The notes under the pieces: model-generated
What the model saw: only the letters and a program-made list of their open reading frames with translations
Told to the model about the DNA's origin: nothing
Database searches by the model: none
Source of the DNA: an archaeon
Lineage (GTDB): Archaea; Nanobdellota; Nanobdellia; Pacearchaeales; GW2011-AR1
Length of the DNA: 64,000 bases
Direction of reading: 5' to 3'
Assembly: GCA_024653565.1 (NCBI GenBank)
Contig: JANLIK010000015.1
Coordinates: 21,289 to 85,288 of the forward strand
Program-made: the position numbers and the translations under genes
Shown here: positions 4,490 through 61,695 of the stretch, one piece after another
Layout of the letters: each line of letters opens with the position of its first letter
Numbering within the stretch: the stretch's first letter is position 1

Positions 4490-4789
4490 TTAAGTGCTAT
4501 CACAAAAATCCCCTCCAGATTCTCCTACAATCTCCATTAAAAGACGAGCAATCGAGCGGTTTTTCCTAATCTCTTCCATTTCCCTAGGAGTTTTAGATTC
4601 TCTTGCCCTTTCAACTAAATATGCGGATGCCCCTCTCATAAACCCCTTATCAAAAGTGACAAGAATCCCAGTAATTTCTGGAACAGAGAGGCGAGGAATA
4701 ACTTCAGGGTGATCTCTTAAGATTCTATATGCCTCAGAGTAACAATCATCCCCAAGTTTTTCTCTGAATCTTTCAAGATAATTTAACAT
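4490..4789 (-). CDS. Hypothetical protein (99 aa)
   Basis: An ORF preceded by the conserved CACAATAATTCTTAAA promoter-like motif. It is preferred over the overlapping antisense ORF at 4494..4712. Confidence 0.45.
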   Translation of the reverse strand: MLNYLERFREKLGDDCYSEAYRILRDHPEVIPRLSVPEITGILVTFDKGFMRGASAYLVERARESKTPREMEEIRKNRSIARLLMEIVGESGGDFCDST

Positions 4790-4841
4790 AATAACAAAGA
4801 GTAGTGAAGGTATTTAAGAATTATTGTGATAATATAATAAA

Positions 4842-5381
4842 CTAACCAAAGTACCCTTTCTGTGTAGAATTTGAACTCTCATCAAAGTTGCCATTAAAGT
4901 TCTCAATTATTTTGAGAATCTTGTGTTTCATTTCTTGCCATTCTCCAAATGCCAGCTTAATAAATTCCGCTTCATTTTCTTCAGAATAAACAGTATCTAA
5001 TTTCATAATTCCTAACTCTAGTCTTGAAATATTTTTATAAATCTCTTTAATCTCCTTTCGGTCTTCCTCACTAATCTTTCTTAAAACAGAAAAAATAAAC
5101 ATTGGGGGGGCATTCGGACTAATCAATGTCTCAAATAAGTGCAAATATGCAGCAAGCTTTTCATTTATTCCACGCCTTATTTCTCTTAATAAAAAATTTG
5201 ATTCACTATCAAAAGTTTTCTCTATATCAAAATCTTCCGCCAACCCCTTAAATTCGGGCAAATCATATTGTTTTCTTAGTACCTCAAACTCCACCCTGTA
5301 GTCTCGTTCTGTTTTTTCCATTTTTTCGTTTCTCCTATTGAATAAAATGGAATCGAAGGTTCTACGAACCCACTTTTCCAT
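4842..5381 (-). CDS. Hypothetical protein (179 aa)
   Basis: An ORF with host-like AT-rich codon usage. No motif recognised. Confidence 0.5.
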   Translation of the reverse strand: MEKWVRRTFDSILFNRRNEKMEKTERDYRVEFEVLRKQYDLPEFKGLAEDFDIEKTFDSESNFLLREIRRGINEKLAAYLHLFETLISPNAPPMFIFSVLRKISEEDRKEIKEIYKNISRLELGIMKLDTVYSEENEAEFIKLAFGEWQEMKHKILKIIENFNGNFDESSNSTQKGYFG

Positions 5382-8183: not shown

Positions 8184-8894
8184 TTGTCTTATAAAAATGT
8201 TTTTATACCTCTAGAGTGTAGTAAGTCTATGAAGAAAAAGAGGTTGAAAATCTATTTATTTAGACATGGAGAGACAACATATAATCGTGATGGACGGTTT
8301 ACAGGGCATTTAGATGCCAAACTAACTGCTAAGGGAAAAAGACAGGCACTAGGGTTTGCTAAGACACTAAAAAGAAAGAAGTTTCAGGTTGCAATAAGAA
8401 CAAGTCTATCACGTTCTAAAGATACACTAGCCCCAGTTTTAAAGGACCACCCGGAATGTGTCTTAGTTATTGAAGATAATAGAATGATTGAAAGAAGTTA
8501 TGGAGACTTAGAAGGAATTACACATGATCAATTCAAAAAAAGGATTGGAAAACAAGAATATGACTTGGAAGTAGAGGGGGATGCAATCGAGAATCTTGAG
8601 CCAAAATTAAGAAAAAAAGTTGAAGAATTTTTAGGAAATGAAGAGTATAAAGCAATCCATAGGGGATTTGATGTAGCACCTCCAAACGGAGAATCCTTTA
8701 AAGATGTTGAAAAGAGAGTAAGAAAATTTATCAAAGACTTAAAGAAATTTATGAAAAAGAACAAAGTTAGTGTAGTTATTTCCGCACACGGAAATTCAAT
8801 AAGGCTCTTTAGAAAGGTGGCCGAGGGAGCTTCTGTTGAAGAAACTGTCAAGTGGTTTATACCATATGATAAGATTTTCACATACGAGGTATAA
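8184..8894 (+). CDS. Histidine phosphatase family protein (phosphoglycerate mutase-like). The start may instead be the ATG at 8229
   Basis: RHGETTYN catalytic motif (RHG) near the N-terminus and a conserved His later (SAHGNSIR). Confidence 0.7.
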   Translation: MSYKNVFIPLECSKSMKKKRLKIYLFRHGETTYNRDGRFTGHLDAKLTAKGKRQALGFAKTLKRKKFQVAIRTSLSRSKDTLAPVLKDHPECVLVIEDNRMIERSYGDLEGITHDQFKKRIGKQEYDLEVEGDAIENLEPKLRKKVEEFLGNEEYKAIHRGFDVAPPNGESFKDVEKRVRKFIKDLKKFMKKNKVSVVISAHGNSIRLFRKVAEGASVEETVKWFIPYDKIFTYEV

Positions 8895-15524: not shown

Positions 15525-17315
15525 TCACTCTAAAACAACCTTAACTCTTCGAGCACCGGCACCAACAGAATCTTGCTTCTTTATTTTGAAGGTGCATCCT
15601 TGAAGTTCCTTTAGGCTCTTGACATGTGGTCCCGTACAAATCTCTTTACTTATTTTTCCATCTCCAATTGAATACACACTTATCTTTTCGGCAACTTTAT
15701 ATTTATCCTCAAAGATTCCAGCCGCACCAAACTTCTTTGCTTCATCTAAACTCATCTCATCTCTTTTAACCTCCGCGCCATCCCAAATCCACCCATTAAC
15801 TAAATCCTCTAACTCCTTAACCTCATCATCAGTAAGTTTTCTGTCGTATGAAAAATCAAACCGAGCTCTTTCTGCATTGATATTGCTTCCTCTTTGTTGA
15901 ATCTCCTTCATCCCTTCAAGTTTTGGTAATACTTTATTCATCGCGGCCAAAAGAAGATGTGTCGCGGTATGCAATCTTGTTGTCGCCTCGCTGTCATCAG
16001 CTAAACCAGATTTAAACTTCCCAGCAGCAGCAGTTCTAGACAACTCAGAATGTTTATTTAACGCATCAGAATATTCTTTTTCATCAACCTTAATTCCCTT
16101 TTCTTTAGCTAACTCCAAGGTCATTTCAATTGGAAAACCATACGATTGGTAAAGCAAAAAGGCCTCCGTTCCAGACATCTTTTTAGAACCAGCAACCTTA
16201 TCAAAAATCCTGAGGCCTTGAGCTAAAGTTTTCAAAAATCTTTCTTCCTCATTAGCCAGCTCCAATGTAATTTTCCTCGCATCTAATTTATAATCTCCAT
16301 AGAGTTCATAAACAACATCTGCAATACTCGTTGTAAAACTTTCAATCCCTAAAACCCTCCCATATCTAACGGCTCTCCTAATCAATCTCCTCAAAACATA
16401 CCCTTGTTCCGAATTACCTGGCACAATACCATCATTAATTATAAAAACTGCTGCCTTGATATGGTCTGCAACAATCCTCATTGCCCTAGTAACTATTTCA
16501 TCCTCCCCATACTTATGTTTTGAAATCATTTCAATCTTTTGAATAATCGGTTGCCAAACCTCTCCTAAATAATTATCCTCAAGTCCATTCAAAACAGCAA
16601 GAGTCCTTTCAACACCCATCCCAGTATCAACATTTTCCTGCTTCGCTAAATTATAATTCCCTTTAGTGTCTTTATTGTATTCCATAAAAACATCATTCCA
16701 AATTTCTAACCAATTACTATCTTTTGGATTAAATTTTCCAGGTAACTTTCCTTTGTTTGGCTTCCAATAAAACATTTCAGTATCAGGACCACAAGGACCT
16801 GTCTTTCCCGCCGGACCCCACCAATTTTCCTCTAAATATACAATTCTTTCGTTACTCACTCCAAGAGAAGCCCAAATATCTGCAGAATCAGTATCCTTAT
16901 CTACTTCCCCATCTCCTTCAAAAACACTGAATGCTAGTCTCTCAACGGGCATTTTCAACACCTTAGTCAAAAACTCAAAGGACATCTCAATTGCTTCCTT
17001 CTTAAAATAATCTCCAAGTGACCAGTTTCCAAGCATTTCAAAAAAAGTATGATGTGACGTATCCCCTACCTCTTCAATATCTCCAGTCCTAATACACCTT
17101 TGAACCCCTACTAACCTCTTCCCTTGAGGGTGTTTCTGTCCTAGGAGAAAAGGAACAAGAGGGTGCATTCCTGCCGTCGTAAAGAGAACAGAAGGATCGT
17201 TCTCCGGGACCAAACTAACATTAGCAACCTCTTTATGCTTCTTCGATTTAAAGAATTTTAAATAAGTCTCAATTAACTCTTTTCTTTTCATTTTTTTATA
17301 TCCTCTATTGAACAA
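15525..17315 (-). CDS. alaS: Alanyl-tRNA synthetase, short form with a bacterial-type catalytic core and lacking the C-terminal C-Ala domain
   Basis: VLFTTAGM, RCIRTGDIEEVG..HHTFFEMLGNWS and an editing-domain HxxxH (HTATHLL) plus CTGPHV motifs. Only 596 aa. Confidence 0.85.
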   Translation of the reverse strand: MFNRGYKKMKRKELIETYLKFFKSKKHKEVANVSLVPENDPSVLFTTAGMHPLVPFLLGQKHPQGKRLVGVQRCIRTGDIEEVGDTSHHTFFEMLGNWSLGDYFKKEAIEMSFEFLTKVLKMPVERLAFSVFEGDGEVDKDTDSADIWASLGVSNERIVYLEENWWGPAGKTGPCGPDTEMFYWKPNKGKLPGKFNPKDSNWLEIWNDVFMEYNKDTKGNYNLAKQENVDTGMGVERTLAVLNGLEDNYLGEVWQPIIQKIEMISKHKYGEDEIVTRAMRIVADHIKAAVFIINDGIVPGNSEQGYVLRRLIRRAVRYGRVLGIESFTTSIADVVYELYGDYKLDARKITLELANEEERFLKTLAQGLRIFDKVAGSKKMSGTEAFLLYQSYGFPIEMTLELAKEKGIKVDEKEYSDALNKHSELSRTAAAGKFKSGLADDSEATTRLHTATHLLLAAMNKVLPKLEGMKEIQQRGSNINAERARFDFSYDRKLTDDEVKELEDLVNGWIWDGAEVKRDEMSLDEAKKFGAAGIFEDKYKVAEKISVYSIGDGKISKEICTGPHVKSLKELQGCTFKIKKQDSVGAGARRVKVVLE

Positions 17316-17431
17316 AATGAAACATGAGACTTCCTCCCTAGACCTACTTGGTTGAAGTCACTTTTTCATGTTTAAACATAGATGAGGTAACTTTTAAATT
17401 TAGTTATTGAATAAACTTCCAAAAAATCACT

Positions 17432-21701: not shown

Positions 21702-24700
21702 ATGTCTAAGATTACTTTCACAAACAAAATAGTCTTTCTTTTAACATTAGTCTTATTAATTGGACTTTCAGCAATAGTAACTGCAGCCGCAAGCCAAACT
21801 TGCTATGATAATGGACTTGACCAAGCAGATACAAAAACTATTCAAATGGAAGGAAAAGGTTCTGGAACATATAAGTGTCCTGGAAACATGATTGTTAGTG
21901 GTTTTGCAATGGATGATAAAGATGACCGACATGCAACTGCCTTAAAATGTATGAACACCTCTGGAGTTCTGGTAAGCCATACAGAAACAAAAGTAAAACT
22001 TACTGTAGATGGAAAAAATTCTTGTGGTTCTGGGAAGATTATGACTGGTGTAATTTATGTTGATTCTGGAGACGACCACATAAGCCATATAATCTGTAAA
22101 GCAGCAAACAATATAAGTTCTAATAGTAGACTAATTGTTTTGGCAGGAAAAAGCGGAAATTCTTTCACAGTATATTCTGACGAAGGAAATGGCCAAGTTG
22201 CTTGGGGAATCACTGCAGTAAACCAGAATAGAGACCCCCAAAAGAATCTAAGGGGAATGTATGCTTCTAGGATAAATATGGGAATTCCCGGAGAAGGAAT
22301 ACAAAAGTGTGTCCAAACAAACATTTGTGACGCGGGATACGAAGCGGTTCTTAAAACAACAAAAACTCTAGATGCAACAAAATCCGCCACAGCAGGGGAC
22401 ACACAAAGAAATGGATTCAAACTTCCAGTAGGAGAATATGTATTTGAATTATATTCTGGAGCATGGAGTAGATGGAATTCTGATAATAAGGACTCAACAA
22501 ATGTTGGTGGGAAAAATGGATACACTTGGTTATCAGATGCAAAAGTAAGATACAAAACTAGTTCAAACAACTATAACGGATTTTTCCTCGGAGAAGATGC
22601 CTATTACAAAAACGCATCAGCCGCACAATCTGCAAACGCAGGAGCCCTACAATTCGCAAACATAACATATAGTAGCTGGCTATCTAACAATGTTTGGGTA
22701 TGGATAAAAGACACACCAATAACTGACAACAGGAATGGAGAAGGGAAGGTTATTGTAAAGGTTTGGCAATGTAGTTTAATTCCACAATGTAGGGATGGAA
22801 TTGATAATGATGGAGATGGTGTAACTGATTATCCAAATGACTTTTCATGTTCAAGCGCAAACGACGCAACAGAAGGCACACCCCTTACACAATGTCAAGA
22901 TGGTATTGACAATGATGGAGATGGTGTAACTGATTTAGCTGACCCTGGTTGCCTAACAAACCAAGGGAATAACGAAGGCTCTGCAACAACACAATGTCAA
23001 GATAGTGTTGATAATGATGGGGATTCCTTAACAGATACAGCAGACCCTGGATGTTGGACAGATGTTACAAACCCAAGTACTTATAATAAGACAAGAAACA
23101 ACGAATCAACAGCAACCTCCCAATGTCAAGACGGAATTGATAATGATGGAGACAATGCAACAGATTATCCAAATGATTTCTCATGTTCGGCACTAACAGA
23201 TAACAACGAAACAAATCCTCTTGCCCAATGTCAAGATGGTGTTGATAATGATGGAGATGGTGTAACTGATTTAGCAGACCCTGGATGTTCAACAAATCAA
23301 GGAAACAACGAAAGTTCAGCAACAACGCAATGTCAAGATAGTGTTGATAATGATGGAGATGGTGTAACTGATTTAGCAGACCCTAGTTGTTCTATCGCAA
23401 CAGATGATGACGAATCTAAGGATGTAACAGCTCCTGTAATATCTAATATTCTTACAATTCCCTCATTACCCCTAACAAACTTTGGACAAAGTCAAAACCT
23501 TTCAGTAGATTTTGATAGCTCAGAATACCTTATAGACATCACATTTAACCTTTATGATAGCAACGGCACCCTCGTGAACACCCAAGGACCAACAAGCATT
23601 CCAAATAACTCTAGTTTGCCTGTCCTATATATTATACCTGCTGGATTGTCTGTAGGAGACTACACTCTAAACATGACTGCAACTGACCCAAGTAATAATT
23701 CAGCAACTGTGAATGTTGGAACAATATTAGTAAGAAATTATCAATGCTCTGATGGAACTGACAATGACGGAGATGGTTACATAGACCTAGCAGACTTTGG
23801 ATGCTCAAGTGCTACAGACGATGATGAAACAAACAATGGAACATTCCAATGTAATGATGGAACTGACAATGACGGAGATTCGTTCATAGACCAACTTGAT
23901 GCTGGATGTTCTGCTTGGGATGATGATAATGAAACAAATACCATTCCTCCAACAACCCCTCAATGTTCAGATGGAACTGACAACGACGGGAATGGATTAA
24001 TTGATTTCCCCGCGGACCCAGGCTGTATGAATGCTTCGGATAATGACGAAATGGATCACTCTCATATTCACCAATGTTCAGATGGAATTGACAACGACGG
24101 GGATGGTTCAATAGACTTCCCTGCAGACTTTGGATGTTCATCTTCAATGGACGATGATGAAGTGAATAACAACTTAACATACCAATGTTCTAATGGTCTA
24201 GATGATGACGGAGATTCATTCATAGACCAATTAGACATGGGATGTTCTGCTTGGGATGATGATAATGAAACAAATACCATTCCTCCAACAACCCCACAAT
24301 GTTCTGATGGAATTGACAATGACGGAGATGGTTACATAGACTTAGCAGACTTTGGATGCTCAAGTGCTACAGACAATGATGAAACAAATCCTATGGCACA
24401 ATGTCAAGATGGAATCGACAACGACGGAGATGGAGATATCGACATGGTAGATTCTGGATGTATTAATAGTCAGGACAATCGAGAATATAAAAGTTCTTCA
24501 AACAGCAGAAGCACATCAAGTGGTGGAAACAGCGGCCAATGTATTGAGGGAAATTGTGGAGACTTTAATGATCAAATAATCCCACAACTCCAGGTTAAAA
24601 CTATTGAACCAATTGTATTGAACGCAGGGGATTCAATTATATTAGGTAGTGGAGAAACAACAACCAGATTAATAACTGGAAACTCAATTGCCCTTGATAA

Positions 24701-24833
24701 AGACAATAGTGAAAGCCCTACAGCATCCACAGCATCAACAGCAAACGAAGGGATCTTACCAATAATCCTTAAATTCCTAATAATTGGAATCATAATTCTT
24801 ATAGTTATAATTATCTTGATAGTTGTGCTTTAG
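21702..24833 (+). CDS. Large cell-surface protein (1043 aa) with about 14 MopE-like C.DG.DNDGDG..D metal-binding repeats and a C-terminal TM anchor
   Basis: Signal peptide, repeated CQDGIDNDGDGVTDYPNDFSCS units that also show as DNA tandem repeats (22780-24480), and a C-terminal hydrophobic anchor ILPIILKFLIIGIIILIVIIILIVVL. Confidence 0.7.
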   Translation: MSKITFTNKIVFLLTLVLLIGLSAIVTAAASQTCYDNGLDQADTKTIQMEGKGSGTYKCPGNMIVSGFAMDDKDDRHATALKCMNTSGVLVSHTETKVKLTVDGKNSCGSGKIMTGVIYVDSGDDHISHIICKAANNISSNSRLIVLAGKSGNSFTVYSDEGNGQVAWGITAVNQNRDPQKNLRGMYASRINMGIPGEGIQKCVQTNICDAGYEAVLKTTKTLDATKSATAGDTQRNGFKLPVGEYVFELYSGAWSRWNSDNKDSTNVGGKNGYTWLSDAKVRYKTSSNNYNGFFLGEDAYYKNASAAQSANAGALQFANITYSSWLSNNVWVWIKDTPITDNRNGEGKVIVKVWQCSLIPQCRDGIDNDGDGVTDYPNDFSCSSANDATEGTPLTQCQDGIDNDGDGVTDLADPGCLTNQGNNEGSATTQCQDSVDNDGDSLTDTADPGCWTDVTNPSTYNKTRNNESTATSQCQDGIDNDGDNATDYPNDFSCSALTDNNETNPLAQCQDGVDNDGDGVTDLADPGCSTNQGNNESSATTQCQDSVDNDGDGVTDLADPSCSIATDDDESKDVTAPVISNILTIPSLPLTNFGQSQNLSVDFDSSEYLIDITFNLYDSNGTLVNTQGPTSIPNNSSLPVLYIIPAGLSVGDYTLNMTATDPSNNSATVNVGTILVRNYQCSDGTDNDGDGYIDLADFGCSSATDDDETNNGTFQCNDGTDNDGDSFIDQLDAGCSAWDDDNETNTIPPTTPQCSDGTDNDGNGLIDFPADPGCMNASDNDEMDHSHIHQCSDGIDNDGDGSIDFPADFGCSSSMDDDEVNNNLTYQCSNGLDDDGDSFIDQLDMGCSAWDDDNETNTIPPTTPQCSDGIDNDGDGYIDLADFGCSSATDNDETNPMAQCQDGIDNDGDGDIDMVDSGCINSQDNREYKSSSNSRSTSSGGNSGQCIEGNCGDFNDQIIPQLQVKTIEPIVLNAGDSIILGSGETTTRLITGNSIALDKDNSESPTASTASTANEGILPIILKFLIIGIIILIVIIILIVVL

Positions 24834-25045: not shown

Positions 25046-25142
25046 AAGTGCTTTATATATATTTTTAGTCTAGAAAATATACTTTAGGATGACTTAAACA
25101 AAGTTTTATAAATAACTTAGACTAGTATAAAATATGAAAAGT

Positions 25143-25157
25143 GACTTCATTGAAGTC
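25143..25157. promoter_or_regulatory. Perfect palindrome GACTTCAtTGAAGTC in a conserved leader about 36 nt upstream of the MKKW start
   Basis: An inverted repeat seen directly in the sequence. A near-identical leader sits upstream of the divergent gene ending at 29120. Confidence 0.45.
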
Positions 25158-25192
25158 TCATGTTTCAATTTATCAAAGGAGAAGATGAAAAT

Positions 25193-25462
25193 ATGAAAAA
25201 GTGGGTGAGCTATACAATCGCAATATCTGGCTTAGTGATAATGGCTATAGGTTTTGGAACATTCAAACTTGAATGGGCAATCCTGAACACCATAAGTCCT
25301 ATGATAATAACAATAGCTGGAGTTATCCTAATCGTCGTTGGAGTTTTATTCTCTCTAATGGGAGGGTCTGGAGGAAACCAGGCCGCAAGAGAAGTTCCTA
25401 TTTATGAAGGAGAAGGAAAAAATAGAAAAATTGTAGCCTACCAAAGAAGCAGTGATGATTAA
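25193..25462 (+). CDS. Small membrane protein. Start placed at MKKW, where AAAGGAG lies 9 nt upstream; the longer 25160 start is less likely
   Basis: SD-like AAAGGAGAAG precedes the ATG at 25193. Two TM helices. Confidence 0.5.
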   Translation: MKKWVSYTIAISGLVIMAIGFGTFKLEWAILNTISPMIITIAGVILIVVGVLFSLMGGSGGNQAAREVPIYEGEGKNRKIVAYQRSSDD

Positions 25463-25477
25463 ATTTATTTAGAAAGA

Positions 25478-26284
25478 TTATCCGATATTTCTCAAGGCCT
25501 TTTCCATTTCCTTAATCCTATCCCCCACACGCTCTGCTGCGGCAGTCTGTGGAGGAGTAGCAGTCAAATAATTCATTTGTTCCTCTCTCATCTCTAAGAT
25601 TTTTAGAGTCATCTTATCTCGAAGTTTTGTCTTGGCTCCCACACTTCCCTGCCTATAATCTGCCAATCCAAACCACTTATGGATTGCGTTATCAAAGATA
25701 AAAGAGAGTATAACAAACCCCAAACCAATCCAGTAGATAATATTTGTTATTCCAATTTTTGAGCTATCATAATACCAAAGAGCAATAAACGCCGCTGCAA
25801 AGATTACCCATCCGGCCCGACGTCCAAATGTTTGGAAATTATTACTGTTATGTAGAAAGAAGAAAAATATTGCTAATGGTAAGAAGACTAAGATAGCTAC
25901 ACTTAAAGCACCATAAGGAATTCGAATACCTTGAATTAACTCATCAGGCAAATATCTAACAGCAAGAATTGATATTGCTAGCCCTATTATAAAATTCAGT
26001 CCTTTTTTATCAGAAAGAATCTTGTTTTTATTAAGGATAAAATAAATTACTATAAATGTAAGGAAAAAAAATAAAAGCTTAGTATAAATCAGCTCTTGAT
26101 TATCATAGGGGGGTGTAAATAGTACCAACGAGATAAACTTAAGAAGAACTCCTACCAGTTCCCCTATCCAACCCAAGAGAACTCCCACTTTTTGAATTTC
26201 TCCACTAACATCTGCGGCACTCACAAGTGAAAAGGAAAATAAAGTAACTAGAGAAGTTAACATCTTTTTTTTCATAATTCTCAC
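25478..26284 (-). CDS. Multi-pass membrane protein with signal peptide (268 aa)
   Basis: ORF with hydrophobic segments. Confidence 0.55.
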   Translation of the reverse strand: MRIMKKKMLTSLVTLFSFSLVSAADVSGEIQKVGVLLGWIGELVGVLLKFISLVLFTPPYDNQELIYTKLLFFFLTFIVIYFILNKNKILSDKKGLNFIIGLAISILAVRYLPDELIQGIRIPYGALSVAILVFLPLAIFFFFLHNSNNFQTFGRRAGWVIFAAAFIALWYYDSSKIGITNIIYWIGLGFVILSFIFDNAIHKWFGLADYRQGSVGAKTKLRDKMTLKILEMREEQMNYLTATPPQTAAAERVGDRIKEMEKALRNIG

Positions 26285-26369
26285 AACCCATCAAAGTTTA
26301 AAAACATTTGTTTGATATTAAACAATCTACCAGCGAAATATTTATAAAGAAAGATTAACTAAAGAAGAA

Positions 26370-27206
26370 ATGAAAAAGGGCTTCAACAAAAGAGGACAGA
26401 ATATATTTGCAGGAGTTGTCGTCGTTCTTCTTGTTATTTTTTTCGGGATTCTTATCTTTGGTTGGATTGACAAGGGCTCTGCAGAAGGGGGCATGAATCT
26501 AGTAAGTAGTATATTTGTAGATATTCTTGGGCCATTATTTAAGGGCTTGCTAGGTTTTGATGGAACAAATGATTTTATGATGGTCTTAGCCTTCCTAATG
26601 GCTGCAATAGTAGTAGTATCAACTTTAGATTCTATAAATATTTTTGGTGAGTCCAAATCTGGACACCTTGTAAACTTCTTCGTTGGAATGATTGTCGCAG
26701 TCATAGGTGTTAGATTTATGCCTTCAACCCTTTGGAATGGATTATCATCTCCTGCAAGCGCATTTATTGCAACAATACTCGTAGGATTACCCTTCTTAGT
26801 AATGTTCTTCATAACTATGAAGATTAAGTCTCGTTTAGCAAATAAGGTAATCTGGTTAGTTTATTTTGCATTCTTAAGTTACCTTATAGCTACAGGGACA
26901 TTCGATGTAGATGGAGCTAAGGCTACAATGTGGATATATATCATCTTCGCATTTCTTTCCCTGGTAATGTTAATCTTTGACGCAAGTATAAGAAGAATAT
27001 TTTACAAAGAAAGAGTTGAAACAGGAATAGCTCAAGCAAAAGGAACCCAAGCCCTAATCCAAATACAGAAGCTAAAAGCCTTAATACAAGAATATCAAAC
27101 TGTTATTGCAGACCCTAATTCTGATCCAAAAACAAAAGCAGACGCTAGGAAAGCAATGATGAACACTGAAAAGACAATAAGAGAGTTATCCGGACTAGGA
27201 AAATAA
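26370..27206 (+). CDS. Multi-pass membrane protein, paralog 1 of a tandem pair
   Basis: MKKGFNKRGQNIFAGVVV N-terminus resembling a class III (prepilin-like) signal. Clearly paralogous to 27369..28220, with a conserved upstream region. Confidence 0.6.
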   Translation: MKKGFNKRGQNIFAGVVVVLLVIFFGILIFGWIDKGSAEGGMNLVSSIFVDILGPLFKGLLGFDGTNDFMMVLAFLMAAIVVVSTLDSINIFGESKSGHLVNFFVGMIVAVIGVRFMPSTLWNGLSSPASAFIATILVGLPFLVMFFITMKIKSRLANKVIWLVYFAFLSYLIATGTFDVDGAKATMWIYIIFAFLSLVMLIFDASIRRIFYKERVETGIAQAKGTQALIQIQKLKALIQEYQTVIADPNSDPKTKADARKAMMNTEKTIRELSGLGK

Positions 27207-27368
27207 TTAGATAGTCTTCCTAAAATTCCCAAATATTAAACATCTTTTGTAAGTACATAATGTCTAATAATCTCAAAAAAAGAAATTAATTTATTTGAGA
27301 AAAATTTTATTTAGAAAAAGATAATTCACCAGCGAAATATTTATAAAGAAAGATTAACTAAAGAGGAA

Positions 27369-28220
27369 ATGAAAACGGGCTTCAACAAAAGAGGACAAAA
27401 CATATTTGCAGGAGTTGTCGTTGGTATTCTTATTATTCTTGCAGGGATTTTTCTTATCGGTTGGTTTGCTCTAGAGGGAGGTACCGCAGAGAAAGGTATG
27501 AATTTGGTAAGTGAGTTATTTATGACAATTTTAGGTCCGATATTCAAAGCAGTTTTAGGATTAGACCAAACAGGACAGAATAATGCCTTCTTAATGGTTT
27601 TAACGTTTCTCTTAGCATCTATAGTTATTGTATCAACTCTTGATTCTGTAAATATCTTTGGTGAATCAAAAGCAGGACACCTTGCAAACTTCTTTGTCGG
27701 AATAATCGTCGCAATCATAGGTGTTAGATTTATGCCTAAAGATCTTTGGATGTCTTTAACATCTCCGGCAAGTGCATTCATTGCAACATTACTTATAGGA
27801 TTACCTTTCTTAGCTATGTTCTTTATAACTATGAAGATTCGGTCTCGTTTAGCAAATAAAGTAATTTGGTTAGTTTATTTTGCATTCTTAAGTTACCTTA
27901 TCGCCACAGGAACCTTTGGTGTGGAAGGGGCTAAAGCTACACTTTGGGTATATATTATATTTGCTGTACTTTCCCTATTAATGTTCTGGTTTGATGCAAC
28001 CTTCAGAAGATTAATCTACAAAGAAAGAGCAGACCTAGGCATCTCTAAAGCCAAGGGCTCTCGAGCCTTGGCGCAAATAAATACTCTAACAACAAGTATA
28101 GAAGCCTATCAGAATATTATTGCAAATCCAATGGCATTACCTGCAGACAAAGTGGCAGCTAGAAAGCATATAAAAGAGATTGAAAAGACAATAAGAGAGC
28201 TATCTGGATTGAAGAACTAG
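27369..28220 (+). CDS. Multi-pass membrane protein, paralog 2 of a tandem pair
   Basis: MKTGFNKRGQNIFAGVVV N-terminus. Conserved upstream sequence accagcgaaatatttataaagaaagattaactaaaga. Confidence 0.6.
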   Translation: MKTGFNKRGQNIFAGVVVGILIILAGIFLIGWFALEGGTAEKGMNLVSELFMTILGPIFKAVLGLDQTGQNNAFLMVLTFLLASIVIVSTLDSVNIFGESKAGHLANFFVGIIVAIIGVRFMPKDLWMSLTSPASAFIATLLIGLPFLAMFFITMKIRSRLANKVIWLVYFAFLSYLIATGTFGVEGAKATLWVYIIFAVLSLLMFWFDATFRRLIYKERADLGISKAKGSRALAQINTLTTSIEAYQNIIANPMALPADKVAARKHIKEIEKTIRELSGLKN

Positions 28221-28442
28221 TTATAGAAATTATCTCCTTGCCCTATATATTCTCCATCATTTTGTTGAGATATCTAGAAATATTATATTAATACAAAGGC
28301 AGAGATAAAAAAGTAAAGGGTGAGCTAGGATTCTAGCCAATCTAGAAACATACAGAATAAATCCTTAGAAACTTTAATGTGAATATTACCTCCTATACTT
28401 ACAAATAGAATCTATAAAATAAACATTCCTAATCCCTCAACC

Positions 28443-29120
28443 CTATGGAGGACCCATTGTACCATCATTTACTACCTCTTGTACTTCTGCCATGGCCTTT
28501 AACTTAGACATCTGAGTTCCGGCAGCAGTTCCTTCATCTATGGCATCTCCTATCTTTTTCTTTCTCACAACCTTATTTACAACAATATGGAGGAGAAAAC
28601 AAAGCCCTATAGCTCCTAGAATCACTAAGATTGAAGGAAAGGTACCAAGACTTTCACTTTTAAAGCTAAACAATGAAAGAGCCAAGGATTTTATAATTCC
28701 AAAGAAAGAAAGGACAAGAGTAAACACCAAGGAAACTACACTTGAAATGGTTCCAGAAGATGGAGTAAATAAGTGAATAACATTCTGAAGAATTGAAAAA
28801 ACAATAATAAATATGCCTATTAAAACAATAAATAAAAAGATACTTAAGTTATCCCCTGAGGTCACTTTAAATATAATTTCAGAACCAGACTGCATCCATT
28901 TAGGAACAGAGATTTCTATAGGAAATGATACTTTTGATTTATCAAATAAATTACTCCCAAGTTCTTTTGATTTATCAACTAAATTAACTCCTTCTCCATC
29001 AGTCACAACACTTTCACCTGAGTCACCCGAACCAGCCACGGGAGGATCACTCTCTTGAGCAAAAATAATGGGGAGAATTAATAAAAAAACAAATACCAAC
29101 AATATTAACTTCTTTTTCAT
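28443..29120 (-). CDS. Secreted or membrane protein. Start placed at MKKKLILLV; the annotated longer start at 29153 is probably leader
   Basis: Signal peptide and a C-terminal TM segment. Same conserved leader as 25193. Confidence 0.5.
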   Translation of the reverse strand: MKKKLILLVFVFLLILPIIFAQESDPPVAGSGDSGESVVTDGEGVNLVDKSKELGSNLFDKSKVSFPIEISVPKWMQSGSEIIFKVTSGDNLSIFLFIVLIGIFIIVFSILQNVIHLFTPSSGTISSVVSLVFTLVLSFFGIIKSLALSLFSFKSESLGTFPSILVILGAIGLCFLLHIVVNKVVRKKKIGDAIDEGTAAGTQMSKLKAMAEVQEVVNDGTMGPP

Positions 29121-29155
29121 ATTTTTGTCTTCTCCTTTAATAAATTGAAACATGA

Positions 29156-29170
29156 AACTTCAATGAAGTC
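29156..29170. promoter_or_regulatory. Second copy (14 of 15 nt) of the GACTTCAtTGAAGTT palindromic leader element, on the minus strand
   Basis: Seen in the sequence. It lies within a ~60-nt leader conserved with 25139-25200. Confidence 0.4.
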
Positions 29171-29243
29171 ATAATTTCATGATTTATTTAGTTAATACAT
29201 ATTTAAAACTCTTTCTAACAAAGTTTAAAAGTAAAAGAGACCT

Positions 29244-37214: not shown

Positions 37215-37241
37215 GCACCCTTCACAAGAAAAGGAAAGATT

Positions 37242-37379
37242 ATGTATCACGTAGGAATAATCATAGTTTGTTTTTTGGTCGCCGTAATCGTCATCTTCTT
37301 TCTCCTTCGAGAAGTAGACAAAAGGGATCACAAAAAGTTCCGGGACGAGCAGGAAAAGTTCTGGGACGACAATCCATAG
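37242..37379 (+). CDS. Small single-TM peptide (45 aa) at the right edge of the G+C-rich island
   Basis: ORF with one TM helix and an AAGGAAAG SD-like upstream region. A long hairpin follows at 37400-37436. Confidence 0.3.
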   Translation: MYHVGIIIVCFLVAVIVIFFLLREVDKRDHKKFRDEQEKFWDDNP

Positions 37380-37477
37380 GACAAGACCAAAGGCAGAAGA
37401 GGGAAGCGATGACTTCGATGCGCTTGCCCTCTTTGACCAAACAAAAAATTTAAATACTATAGTGCACTATGTAGTGT

Positions 37478-37663
37478 ATGGTATTAGACAAAAAAATAAT
37501 CGCCGCATTGAAAACAGGGGGCGCCCCCCTAACACAAAAAGAAATCGCCGACAAAGTCGGCGACATAAACCGAGCTGTTTTGCTCGGTTACCTAAGATGT
37601 TTAGTAGACCTCGAAAAAATCAAAGCAAAAGATTCTGGTAAGGCCAAGATATACTACCTTTGA
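37478..37663 (+). CDS. Small winged-helix DNA-binding protein (61 aa)
   Basis: LTQKEIADKVGDINRAVLLGYLRCLVDLEKI resembles a wHTH recognition helix and wing. A 10-nt palindrome TAGTGCACTA lies upstream. Confidence 0.45.
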   Translation: MVLDKKIIAALKTGGAPLTQKEIADKVGDINRAVLLGYLRCLVDLEKIKAKDSGKAKIYYL

Positions 37664-37858
37664 AAAAGCGCTTCGCGCATAAGTAACCCTCATTCTCTTA
37701 ACATGCTTGTTCAACCAAAAAAAGCCGTTTTACATTCACTAATCGCCGAAGGCGAAATAAAAAGTATAATCCAACCAACTCGTTAAAGAGTTTACAACAT
37801 TACTAAACTTCCCAAAGCGAGCATCCTGACGCAAGGCGGATGCGAGCAATTACCAAAC

Positions 37859-45615: not shown

Positions 45616-45649
45616 CCCAGTATAGTAATCTATTTAAATGGATAATCAC

Positions 45650-47130
45650 AACAATTTTCATTACAATCATATTCACAAATACCAAAAAACACACCTTCCT
45701 TCGATGACCCCGTCATCTTAGAACCACCAACGACGATTCCTAGCAACACCAGAAACCAGGAAGAAGATTCGAGCAATCGAATAAGAATTCTATTTCTAGT
45801 TGTTGCTGTGTCCGTCGCTGAGAGGTGTTTCAGGTATTTCTCACTGAAATCTAGGGCCAGGTGGGGTCGTCTTGTGCATTTCCTGTCAAGGTCTTCGGCA
45901 ATGTCTTAGCTTCACCCACCTGGCCTGAAAATCGTGCCGGTCCGCCCCTGTCTTCTGTCCTGTGGAGCGAATGAAGCCCGCAATGAGAATCACACTTCCG
46001 CCCCTCGGTCACCACGAGAGTCTGGAAGGTAGTGTTTGTGGGCATACCCTCCGCCCAGGTCGGCACTCTGAGCGACCGCGCGTAGCAAGAGGTCTCCTCC
46101 CCTAGATGTTGTAGGTAAGCGGGCCGGCACACCGAGACCTTTTCCTTTACCTGATGGGTCCGCCGTCTAACACGAAAGTATTGGCGGCGGAGAACCCTAT
46201 CTACTCGGCATCAAAACCGCCCCCTAAAAGCCCCAGTACCCCAAGGGTAAGTTGCCCAAAAGGGAACTGAGGGGGCGGTAGTTCCTTCTTGAAACCCATG
46301 GTCCTATCACACTGGCGGCGATCCCGGAAAACTAGGCACTGGCCTCACGTGCTAGTAAGGCGAACCCTAACCACCCTGCAAGGGATAAGTGGCTAAATGG
46401 GGTTCTCCAAACTGGTTAGAGGTACACCCTTGCCATGTAGTGGGTTCCCCCCTTTGATAGGGCTAGTCCCGTCGGTGTTGCTCACGGATGCGAGGGAGGA
46501 AGCGGACAAATCCGTAGAATCTCCCCGAGGAAAACCTACTTCTGAGAAAAAACCCATACTGTGAAAGGAAGGGTAAAAAAAACTCAGGATGAAGGATATC
46601 CAAAGGGACAAAAGGGCCCTCCAAACGGAAGGAAGTGACACCGGCGGGACACCAGAAATCTTGGGAAAGTGCGGTGGAGCGGAAGTTCCGTTTCATCGAG
46701 ACAGTACCCAGTCGCCCCCAGCACCTGTCGGGTGAAGCATCCCGTCAATTTCGTGCATCCAGCGCGACTAAGCTGCTGGGGGCGACTAACCCATCTTGAC
46801 TTGCCAAGGCCCTCTCCTCCCTTGGTGGGTCTCTCTCCCTGCTCAAACCAGGAAAAGTCGTGAGAATAGCACGACGACCGACTACCCTCCTGTCTTGGTG
46901 GTTTGGCAAACCCCAAGGTCGTTTCATCCCTGCCCTGCGCTTCCCACGGCGCCTCCCTTCCCTCCCTCGGGATGGAATGGCACGGTAGGTCGGTCCCCCT
47001 CTCCTAGAGGGTCTCGTTGTCCTGAGGAGTAGGAGAAAGTTCCCTGCTCACCCCTCCTCGTCCGTCGTAGCCCGCCCCCCCTCTCCTACCCTGGGTTTCT
47101 TTACCAGGAGGGGGCGGGCTGATGTTGGAT
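45650..47130. other. About 1.5 kb G+C-rich block without ORFs; possible structured RNA or decayed foreign DNA
   Basis: Compositional shift, with only short overlapping ORFs on both strands. Ends in a GC hairpin plus T-tract. Confidence 0.3.
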
Positions 47131-47145
47131 GAATTTTTTTATTTA
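47070..47145 (+). terminator. GC hairpin GCCCGCCCCCC...GGGGGGCGGGC followed by a T-tract
   Basis: Inverted repeat followed by TTTTTTTATTT, seen in the sequence. Same style as the island terminators at 35807 and 37177. Confidence 0.4.
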
Positions 47146-47277
47146 TCTTATAGTACACTATACAGCACACAAAGAACACAACAACCCTCTTGGAACCAAA
47201 CCCGGGAGCCCCGGGTTAAAAACGGCCGTAAAGGCCGTTTCCACAAAACCTAAATACTTCTTTTAACATAAAATAGG

Positions 47278-48523: not shown

Positions 48524-48666
48524 CTTATTTGTTTAAATTAATCAGACTATTTAAGAATTATTCTTATTGATAATCTATATTCAAGAACTCTCCAGACCCT
48601 GAAGAGGATGTAATTTTTCCCATCACTGAAGATAAGGTTAAGATGACTACTTTTTAAACAAGAGAT

Positions 48667-49132: not shown

Positions 49133-49564
49133 TTAAGAAAGTTTTCCCTTCATCAAATCTCTAATCTGAAAAACAACAGCTTCATCCAAACCTACTTTTG
49201 GGTAGGGAGCATAATTTCCCCTAGGATTTGGGTCAACAAAATCTATCCCTGCGAAAGTTCTAGATGTTTGATATCGAGGTATTAAATGTGCATGAAGATG
49301 GGGTGCTTCATTCCCGAGTATCGCCACATTAGATCTGTCATGCCTAAATAATTCCCTTGTTGCTCTTTCCCAATCAGGAATAACCACTTCAAATAATTCC
49401 AATATCTCTCCTCTAGAAGCATCAGAAACTAAATCTGCTTCAGGTCTCCTTGCCCAGGCATAAGCCCTCCCGATGTATGGAGACTGTCTCTCATGAAGAA
49501 ATAAATCCCATAAATCATATGTTTTCAATTTAAATCTTTCAAAATCTTCTGCCATAAAAAACAA
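49133..49564 (-). CDS. HIT family protein
   Basis: Histidine triad HLHAHLIP (HxHxHxx). 143 aa. Confidence 0.7.
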   Translation of the reverse strand: MFFMAEDFERFKLKTYDLWDLFLHERQSPYIGRAYAWARRPEADLVSDASRGEILELFEVVIPDWERATRELFRHDRSNVAILGNEAPHLHAHLIPRYQTSRTFAGIDFVDPNPRGNYAPYPKVGLDEAVVFQIRDLMKGKLS

Positions 49565-49735
49565 ACCAATCCAAGGTTTTTAAGAATTATTGTGTTCTTC
49601 TTTCATCCCGCTTCTTCATCACAAAAGCCAAAAAATTGCTCTCTAAATGGTCCCCTCCATGAGCTGGGTCTTTGAGATTATTTCTTAAAACAAGAAATTC
49701 TTTACCATTGGTAATAAAAGAAATTATCTTTTTAT

Positions 49736-61089: not shown

Positions 61090-61554
61090 TTAAACACCAA
61101 ACCACCCTCTAACTTGGGCTCGGACATTATCCATCAACCTCAACTCAGTAGGATTAAGTTCTTCTAAAGAATAACCAGGTGTTGTAAAGAATTTCATTGA
61201 ATCATATCCTCTAATATCTGTTCTATGTTCTCTCTTTAAATCAAAAGATATTATAGCAAGTTCAGCTCCACTTCCTTCACCATAGGAAGTAGATATATTT
61301 CCACTAGTCGTTGCAGATCCTGGGTCAGAAATATGTTTCCCAGTAAGACTCCCCAAATTATTTCTTTCAGGAACAATATTCTCATTACTTGAAACTCGAT
61401 AATTAATTGTTGTAGCAGGTCCAATTCCTCTGGCCACATGAGTTAAAAGGCCACCAACTTCTTTATGATCAATTGATCTAGGAAAATTAATTGTTGATCT
61501 AGCCATCAATTTCTCAATATCGCTAACTTCTCTATCTCCTGCCATGAAAAACAA
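61090..61554 (-). CDS. Hypothetical protein (154 aa)
   Basis: ORF preceded by the conserved CACAATAATTCTT promoter/leader motif. The first codons (MFFMAGD) are shared with the HIT gene. Confidence 0.45.
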   Translation of the reverse strand: MFFMAGDREVSDIEKLMARSTINFPRSIDHKEVGGLLTHVARGIGPATTINYRVSSNENIVPERNNLGSLTGKHISDPGSATTSGNISTSYGEGSGAELAIISFDLKREHRTDIRGYDSMKFFTTPGYSLEELNPTELRLMDNVRAQVRGWFGV

Positions 61555-61695
61555 ACCAATTATAGGTTTAAAAGAATTATTGTGGTTAAAAACACAATCA
61601 CATATTTTCCATAGACATCACTCCCTCGATGTCGAATACAATGGTTTTAATCACCATAATAAAACATAATTAAATGATTATAAAAACTTGTTTTT

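Follow-up and report, generated by a model that had tools for sequence, protein, structure and literature searches.

A candidate copied 5'-leader element at the starts of otherwise leaderless genes in a Pacearchaeales archaeon

We analysed a 64-kb window (the whole stretch of 64,000 nt of contig JANLIK010000015.1, from an archaeon assigned to the Pacearchaeales) in which a 60-nt repeat precedes two membrane-protein genes, here called gene A and gene B, in opposite orientations. We propose that the two repeats are sister copies of a short (about 52–85 nt), orientation-specific 5'-leader element that was copied into the starts of otherwise leaderless genes. The best reading, to which we give a probability of roughly 65%, is a small, mobile-like module of the 5' untranslated region (UTR) that would make leaderless genes leadered and dependent on a Shine–Dalgarno (SD) site. 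This reading is carried by the number of copies, their position relative to the TATA box, the covariation of a hairpin, the absence of the element from orthologous sites and the true start codons of the genes that carry it.

A leader element ahead of four genes

The repeat search returned two inverted-repeat arms of 60 nt, at 25142–25201 (+) and 29112–29171 (−), which were identical at 56/60 positions (93%) and separated by 3910 nt. When the two copies (c1 and c2) were aligned, the likeness stopped directly past ATGAAAAAG and the flanks were unrelated; upstream, only the TATA box and ATGAAA were alike. That is, the leader of about 60 nt that the initial annotation had reported for both genes is real, and so is its AAGGAG motif, which lies 11 nt upstream of ATGAAAAAG in each copy. 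The perfect 7-1-7 palindrome reported with it was present in the + copy alone (GACTTCATTGAAGTC, 25143–25157); c2 reads GACTTCATTGAAGTT, with one mismatch. A pattern scan of the window allowing ≤2 mismatches gave 3 matches versus 0.33 expected. An in-frame upstream ATG, opening the peptide MFQFIKGED(E/K)N, was present in c1 and c2. Exact matches to the 10-mer TCATGTTTCA numbered three in the window, and L031 and L032, two loci of a more distant lineage, had one apiece; all of them lie within leaders.

Two further, more diverged copies were found in the window, c3 at 17283–17369 (−) before the gene for alanyl-tRNA synthetase (AlaRS) and c4 at 5313–5381 (−) before the gene for a 159-aa protein, with palindrome arms 20 nt and 3 nt apart, respectively. 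The third TCATGTTTCA occurrence is the one upstream of AlaRS, where the TATA box and 22 nt are followed by ATGAAAAAGTGACTTC-(20 nt)-GAAGTCTCATGTTTCATTTTGTTCAATAGAGGATATAAAAAAATGAAAAGA; c4 reads TATA box, 21 nt and then ATGGAAAAGTGGGTTCGTAGAACCTTCGATTCCATTTTATTCAATAGGAGAAACGAAAAAATGGAAAAA. The leader is therefore not specific to the two membrane-protein genes, since an AlaRS gene and a cytoplasmic protein gene carry the same element.

Covariance model R1, built from c1, c2, c3 and the L031/L032 copy without c4, recovered c4 at 44.6 bits (E 2.6e-6). With model R2, built from all five copies including c4, members scored 78–86 bits (c4, 77.8; L031/L032 copy, 79) and the next match in the window scored 20 bits; over the window and ~260 kb of related DPANN loci, the best non-member reached 23 bits. 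Like miniature inverted-repeat transposable elements (MITEs), the element occurs in multiple dispersed copies without coding capacity, four in 64 kb and one in another lineage. The scan for further sites that the initial annotation had proposed thus yielded two more copies in the window and one in L031/L032; apart from the latter, the ~260 kb of related loci held no R2 member. Exact-pattern scans for further copies found none in metagenome contigs and only four matches, bacterial and attributed to chance, in reference genome contigs. In viral contigs, one pattern had no match and every one of the 29 matches to the other was rejected by the model. We also rejected a partial match at 8725–8761 (74–76%), which lies inside a coding region and scored only 12.8 bits, and a 14-nt match to the palindrome core in L005–L008/L011, which lies inside the FEN1 gene and was treated as chance.

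All five copies follow one plan: where a leaderless gene would start stands a 5'-terminal ATGRAA, and behind it come a hairpin, a UUYCAU box, GGAG or GAGG, and the real ATG. The window copies are as follows.

25105..25112, + strand: TATA box of c1 (gene A), TTTATAAA, with 21 nt between its end and the ATG at 25134, the most frequent spacing of leaderless starts here
25134..25195, + strand: leader c1, with an apparently vestigial 5'-terminal ATGAAA at 25134–25139 and the true ATG at 25193–25195; 85.5 bits with R2
Parts of c1, + strand: arms 25143–25148 and 25152–25157 (loop ATT); TCATGTTTCA 25158–25167; box TTTCAA 25163–25168; GGAG 25178–25181
29202..29209, − strand: TATA box of c2, GTTTTAAA on the − strand, 21 nt upstream of the ATG at 29180
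29118..29180, − strand: leader c2, with 5'-terminal ATGAAATTATGA (MKL*) at 29180–29169 and the true ATG at 29120–29118; 83 bits
Parts of c2, − strand: arms 29170–29165 and 29161–29156 (closing G-U); TCATGTTTCA 29155–29146; GGAG 29135–29132
17289..17369, − strand: leader c3 (AlaRS), with ATGAAAAAGTGA (MKK*) at 17369–17358 and the true ATG at 17291–17289; TATA box ATTTAAAA 17399–17392
Parts of c3, − strand: arms 17359–17354 and 17333–17328 (20-nt loop); TCATGTTTCA 17327–17318; box TTTCAT 17322–17317; GAGG 17305–17302
5319..5381, − strand: leader c4 (159-aa protein gene), with 5'-terminal ATGGAA at 5381–5376 and the true ATG at 5321–5319; TATA box TTTATAAA 5410–5403
Parts of c4, − strand: arms GGGTTC 5371–5366 and GAACCT 5362–5357 (loop GTA); box TTCCAT 5352–5347; GGAG 5335–5332

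The element begins where a leaderless gene would begin

The window has ~34% GC and is archaeal, encoding archaeal-type PheRS alpha and beta subunits, a family-B DNA polymerase (PolB), FEN1 and TFE. Its proteins match GenBank MCR4323433, MCR4323435 and MCR4323446, and the best relatives of its AlaRS are labelled Pacearchaeota or Nanoarchaeota. In archaea, first cistrons are leaderless and internal cistrons use SD sites. We listed the upstream sequence of every long open reading frame (ORF) and measured the distance from a TATA-like 8-mer ([ACT]TTWWAWA) to the ATG. The distances showed a sharp mode at 21 nt (19 gene starts, with three at 22 and two at 20; 24 in total); therefore, transcription would begin at or beside the ATG, and nearly all transcription units of this genome appear to be leaderless, each reading 8-nt TATA box, 21–22 nt and ATG. 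SD-like motifs (GGAG, GAGGT, GGTG) were seen only before internal genes, such as the GGAG 11 nt before the ATG at 2823.

Genes A and B have canonical TATA boxes 80 and 79 nt from the ATG of their MKK starts. The same TATA boxes lie exactly 21 nt from the upstream ATGAAA at 25134 (+) and 29180 (−), 8–10 nt before the palindrome; therefore, the conserved block begins at the predicted 5' end of the transcript. Across all five copies, the TATA box plus 21–22 nt falls on the upstream ATGRAA, and the real start lies 79–100 nt from the TATA box. Since the predicted transcription start is upstream of the palindrome, the palindrome, and with it the element, is probably transcribed. An internal promoter within the leader was rejected, as no TATA-like 8-mer lies 21–22 nt from the real ATG.

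In the ORF at 29244–29963, the first ATG (29244) is probably not the start, as the TATA box plus 22 nt points to the second ATG at 29253 (MKRGILL...). Promoters on the − strand at 4778–4828, 49544–49594 and 61534–61584 (and about 48530–48560) have a conserved promoter-proximal block, CACAATAATTCTTAAA(A/T)ACC, upstream of three or four small genes, two of which are paralogues starting MAEDxx/MAGDxx; the block may be a shared regulator site or a variant of the B recognition element (BRE)/TATA box.

Carrier genes and their true start codons

The four carrier genes have no common theme.

25193..25462, + strand: gene A, true ORF, 89-aa protein with two transmembrane (TM) segments (MKKWVSY...); orthologues start MKK(L/V)VGY and are leaderless
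28443..29120, − strand: gene B, true ORF, 225-aa signal-peptide/multi-TM (secreted/TM) protein (MKKKLILL...)
15525..17291, − strand: AlaRS, 588 aa, Pfam tRNA-synt_2c 1.3e-132; P0034 = MCR4323446
4842..5321, − strand: 159-aa cytoplasmic protein (MEKTERDY...), true ORF, no significant Pfam domain; orthologue loci in L044, L075 and L076 leaderless

NCBI annotates gene B as 236 aa from MFQFIK (MCR4323433), a product for which no homologue was found except itself. Orthologues of genes A and B were reached via the family of the neighbouring 283-aa protein, whose homologues gave syntenic loci. In L005–L008 and L011, the gene order is large Cys-rich protein, 62 aa, 88 aa (gene A), 264 aa, 276 aa, 197 aa (gene B), 217 aa, FEN1 and PolB. 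There and in further loci, the orthologues of both genes begin MKK, MKR or MNR directly 21 nt past the TATA box, and none has MFQFIKGED; therefore, the ATGs of the MKK starts (25193 and 29120) are the real starts, and the 236-aa GenBank model and the 100-aa ORF of gene A are over-extended. The N-terminus M[DNKE]RKELI of AlaRS is kept in about 120 homologues. The family of the c4 protein is typically 155–165 aa long, and its members align from about residue 21 (20–30) of the 179-aa ORF onto their own residues 1–12. These N-termini place the element upstream of the true start in these two genes also. In total, three of the four carriers can be mis-started by ORF callers (the 236-aa GenBank model and the longest-ORF calls of 100 aa and 179 aa).

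In L009/L025 (8360–8390), the gene-A orthologue has another leader of 9 nt: TATA box, 21 nt, GAGGTGAAA-ATG, with a near-perfect SD site (GAGGTGA). The 5' end of gene A has therefore been remodelled more than once. In the c4 family, the N-terminal extensions of P0155 and P0197 were considered as leader homologues and rejected: the called ORFs run on across a tRNA 3' end and a promoter, and neither locus has a leader. The N-terminus of P0154 is truly longer, and a leader is lacking at this locus too. In L044, a tRNA gene 3' end is duplicated ~75 nt downstream (655–680 and 731–752), beside the orthologue of the c4 gene; this looks like the att-site remnant of an integration event, and it caused the false 38-aa N-terminal extension in P0155.

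Folding and covariation

The hairpin has a 6-bp stem, reading GACUUC/GAAGUC in c1 and c3, GACUUC/GAAGUU in c2, AGCUUC/GAAGCU in L032 and GGGUUC/GAACCU in c4, with loops of 3, 20, 3, 34 and 3 nt in c1, c3, c2, L032 and c4, respectively. This helix (P2) was 100% paired in the five sequences, and three of its six pairs were changed on both sides, compared with 35–58% pairing in slid controls. In this small sample, the compensatory changes support the predicted stem. The four differences between c1 and c2 leave the stem pairing (G-C to G-U), the box, GGAG and AUG intact.

Ahead of the real AUG, at a distance of 8–11 nt, lies the SD-like GGAG or GAGG. The box reads UUUCA(U/A), but UUCCAU in c4, where it matches AUGGAA at both the 5' end and the real start; elsewhere, UUUCA(U/A) goes with AUGAAA. 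As the box is complementary to AUGRAA, it has two possible partners: the 5' end, with which it can complete a long stem (P1 + P2), and the real start (Alt). The P1 and Alt helices showed one double change each. In constrained folds, the two states were 0.4–1.1 kcal/mol apart in c1, c3, c4 and L032, and the unconstrained minimum-energy fold used Alt in c1, c3 and c4. In a search against Rfam, no family reached its gathering threshold; the best sub-threshold scores were 14.6–20.5 bits, against cut-offs of 37–70.

Empty orthologous sites

The orthologues of genes A and B are leaderless in L005, L011, L027, L020 and L037, AlaRS is leaderless in L042 and L043, and the c4 gene is leaderless in L044, L075 and L076. 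Such empty orthologous sites in relatives are a further MITE-like trait. Since the orthologues of all four carriers are leaderless in every relative examined, the element was gained in this lineage and spread to several genes. An extra copy sits at gene A in the L031/L032 lineage, where the TATA box and 22 nt are followed by ATGAAAAAGTAGCTTC-(34 nt)-GAAGCTTCATGTTTCATTTGCATAATGGAGGAGATATAAAAATGAAAAAG up to the ATG of the MKK start.

ATGRAAA stands on both flanks of the element, at 7/7 positions in c3, c4, L032 and c1 and at 6/7 in c2; this sequence may just as well belong to the element or be needed for function. c4 is flanked by ATGGAAA, and as ATGGAAAAA is already found at the empty site in L044, the 5' copy looks like a duplicated target. 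The flanks would fit a 7-nt target duplication, or an element with its own start codon inserting after a matching hexamer. Meanwhile, the window holds at least eight other leaderless genes beginning ATGRAAA without the element. Inversion of the 3.9-kb segment between c1 and c2 was rejected, as gene order and orientation agree with those of relatives.

Proposed mechanism and points against it

In the mechanism that we favour, each copy would sit right behind ATGRAAA, the 7 nt with which the original leaderless transcript began, and the ATGRAAA recurring at the 3' end of the element would supply the real start codon. The element would bring a 5'-proximal hairpin with a covarying 6-bp stem and a variable loop, a UUYCAU box that may pair with the 5'-terminal AUGRAA, completing a long stem, or alternatively with the region of the real start, and a GGAG/GAGG SD-like site serving the real AUG. 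The leader, 59–100 nt long, would switch its carriers from leaderless to SD-type initiation, with the vestigial 5' AUG buried in, or ahead of, a stable 5' stem that would protect the 5' end. The change of initiation mode together with 5'-end protection is the most likely effect, and a box-mediated toggle of start-codon access is rather unlikely. Copying may have occurred by 7-nt target duplication, box-guided insertion or microhomology recombination. A more far-reaching version is a guide-directed, "start-codon-seeking" mobile leader, in which the UUYCAU box selects the AUGRAA of leaderless genes by pairing and the element inserts after it, regenerating an SD site and a start codon. We regard this version as decidedly doubtful; if true, such a leader could colonise gene starts without killing the gene, which would be an undescribed way to target and rewire archaeal translation initiation.

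Several observations weigh against the favoured reading. The element has no terminal inverted repeats, its 5' end AGTGACTTC being without an inverted counterpart at the A-rich 3' end, and no transposase gene was detected by Pfam in the window. Fold energies were only modestly better than those of shuffles (z about −1 to −2.5, with −0.5 in L032). The covariation statistics are weak because there are only five copies, about four of them independent, and 4/500 shuffles reached the observed covariation score; in addition, the five-sequence alignment (A5) was fitted to the hairpin, although the pairs are readable in the raw sequences. The P1 and Alt states are nearly isoenergetic because the same hexamer occurs twice, so this is no independent evidence for a switch. 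The transcription start was placed by promoter geometry alone. Finally, the 5' mini-ORF is inconsistent, reading MKK* in c3 and L032, MKL* in c2 and through in c4; in c1, it is frameshifted and runs for 20 codons, ending in an ATGA overlap with the main start.

Alternative explanations

The main rival is a selfish element with guided insertion, in which the hairpin and the UUYCAU box serve transposition, not expression, as in the palindrome-associated transposable elements (PATEs) derived from IS200/IS605, and the box recognises ATGRAA targets by complementarity. As the element carries its own SD site and ATGRAAA, only insertions at genes beginning ATGRAAA would survive. Such an origin would agree with the joint variation of 5' flank, box and 3' start in c4 (ATGGAA/TTCCAT/ATGGAA), with an ancestral c4-gene start that already read ATGGAAAAA, with every insertion lying after ATGRAAA in the same position and orientation, and with a patchy distribution across lineages among carriers of no common function. 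However, only one copy shows the triple covariation, there is a single hairpin instead of two, the box follows the hairpin on its 3' side, in contrast to IS608 guides, neither tnpA nor any other transposase was seen in the 64 kb, and at least eight other leaderless ATGRAAA genes of the window are unoccupied. We consider this origin unlikely. The initial annotation had instead taken the palindrome for a common regulator-binding site controlling the two membrane-protein genes. Such a site would be the operator of a dimeric transcription factor that co-regulates them by binding just downstream of their promoters. Archaeal repressors commonly act near the transcription start, where c1 indeed has its perfect palindrome. 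Nevertheless, for a dimeric DNA-binding regulator, both the spacing and the sequence of the half-sites must be fixed, and here neither is: the arms are 3, 3, 3, 20 and 34 nt apart in the five copies, and their sequence shifts by compensatory pairs (GACTTC/GAAGTC, AGCTTC/GAAGCT, GGGTTC/GAACCT). These features fit a folded single strand rather than a dimer site of fixed spacing. As DNA, the palindrome of c2 is imperfect, but as RNA it keeps a G-U pair; the 60 conserved nt far exceed an operator, and AlaRS and the cytoplasmic protein gene carry the element as well. An operator is thus quite improbable, and the claim of a common regulator was not borne out.

It is highly improbable that MFQFIKGED(E/K)N is a genuine N-terminal extension and that the repeat was kept as protein-coding sequence, as the 236-aa annotation of NCBI would have it. 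In c1, c2 and L032, the upstream ATG does head an uninterrupted frame shared with the gene, and two of the three c1/c2 differences inside the MFQFIKGED region are synonymous. However, the conservation reaches 18 nt upstream of the MFQ ATG, no TATA box lies 21 nt upstream of this ATG, the ORF stops after six codons in c3 (MFHFVQ*), the ATG is missing in c4, and the orthologues start at MKK without the extension. The MF(Q/H) peptides (MFQFIKGEDEN, MFHLHNGGDIK and MFHFVQ*) are not conserved, that of L032 (MFHLHNGGDIK) having only M, F, G and D in common with MFQFIKGED. As the initial annotation suspected, MFQFIKGED is leader and not conserved protein. A conserved upstream ORF was likewise rejected, since the 5' mini-ORF and the MF(Q/H) ORF are each inconsistent among copies. 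The least credible alternative is a recent local duplication or gene conversion between two neighbours, with the other similarities due to chance. The two copies, which stand inverted at a distance of 3.9 kb, are 93% alike, whereas c3 and c4 are far more distant from both. The model scans contradict this view, as c3, c4 and L032 score 78–82 bits versus noise of ≤23 bits; moreover, all three are positioned alike with respect to TATA box and true start codon, and every exact occurrence of the 10-mer, of which the window has three and L031 and L032 one each, is in a leader.

Other observations in the window

Genes A and B flank paralogous membrane-protein genes, as had been reported. The tandem genes at 26370 and 27369 are paralogues with 68% aa identity. 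Over their promoters and 5' regions (26301–26469 and 27300–27468), TATA box included, the two are 82% identical; unlike the leader element, this is an ordinary tandem gene duplication. The 265-aa gene at 25478–26275 (−) is a distant paralogue of this family. At 21702–24833, a 1043-aa secreted protein contains many CxDGxDNDGDGxxD(x)AD(P/F)GC repeats (DNA repeat families of 68–92 nt); it has no Pfam match, and its 1632-aa syntenic counterpart in L005 matches DUF4215.

A 7.5-kb island at 30100–37660 has 58–63% GC versus 34% in the genome and lies exactly between a 239-aa membrane gene and FEN1. Because these two genes adjoin in L005–L008/L011, the island is no obvious misassembly but a real insertion. 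Encoded there are a 979-aa protein resembling the major vault protein (MVP_shoulder 1.9e-22, Vault_3), an M29 aminopeptidase, a lipoprotein-like ORF, a RING-like ORF and a small winged-helix-turn-helix (wHTH)-like ORF (37479–37664), which has an archaeal start of TATA box plus 21 nt. A 140-nt direct repeat (30365–30504 and 31232–31371, 98%) lies ahead of two island genes.

The 1.65 kb at 45620–47270 lack a spanning long ORF and contain only short overlapping ORFs of ≤110 aa. The core at 45800–47130 is, by eye, more GC-rich than the genome (46001–48000 has 48.6% GC). Its features include a TATA-like box near 45630 and, at ~47060–47140 (+), a strong GC hairpin with a T-run terminator. The region is located between a PUA-domain gene and an M24 peptidase gene, which abut in L005, and gave no Rfam match even at a relaxed threshold. 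It is a candidate for a large structured RNA or a degraded foreign element.

Significance and comparison with known systems

DPANN archaea are, to our knowledge, uncultivated, and we know of almost no studies of their gene-expression signals; in the literature on leaderless and DPANN genes, archaeal MITEs and Pacearchaeota promoters, we found no description of the element. In the window, a very rigid leaderless promoter-to-ATG geometry appears to be overridden at selected genes by a discrete module. If the module is regulatory, it would be a new archaeal cis-regulatory RNA, open to reporter assays. If it is mobile, leadered, SD-dependent genes could arise from leaderless ones in a single step, through an element targeted to gene starts.

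Correia elements (CREE) of Neisseria, enterobacterial ERIC/IRU and pneumococcal BOX/RUP are small non-autonomous repeats that are co-transcribed in bacterial 5' UTRs. Like the present element, they are short, multi-copy, non-coding, hairpin-forming and missing at orthologous sites; they are transcribed with the downstream gene and can alter mRNA stability or translation. In contrast, the present element has no terminal inverted repeats spanning it, resides in a DPANN archaeon, takes a fixed position (after nt 7 of the leaderless transcript) in a single orientation, supplies its own SD-like site and restores the start codon. PATEs derived from IS200/IS605 resemble it in being small and hairpin-centred, in having a short hairpin-adjacent sequence complementary or related to the target and the ends, and in inserting 3' of a short specific target. 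They differ from it in that it has one hairpin, another box geometry, no TnpA seen in the 64-kb window and an apparent 7-nt direct repeat flanking it.

Leaders that sequester the start codon or SD site include the fourU and ROSE RNA thermometers, and 5'-terminal stabiliser stem-loops are known from the ompA and ermC type. Similarly, the predicted minimum-energy fold of c1, c3 and c4 pairs a U-rich box with the AAAAUGRAA start region in an A-U-rich helix, and the stem-loop lies ~10 nt or less from the predicted 5' end. The element has no sequence or Rfam relationship to these leaders, and it differs in offering its box an alternative partner at the 5' end and in standing behind an archaeal leaderless-type promoter. 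Finally, with respect to archaeal initiation, this genome obeys the leaderless rule and its internal genes bear GGAG/GAGGT motifs; unlike in that rule, an inserted module would here have made first cistrons SD-led, with a vestigial 5'-terminal AUG kept.

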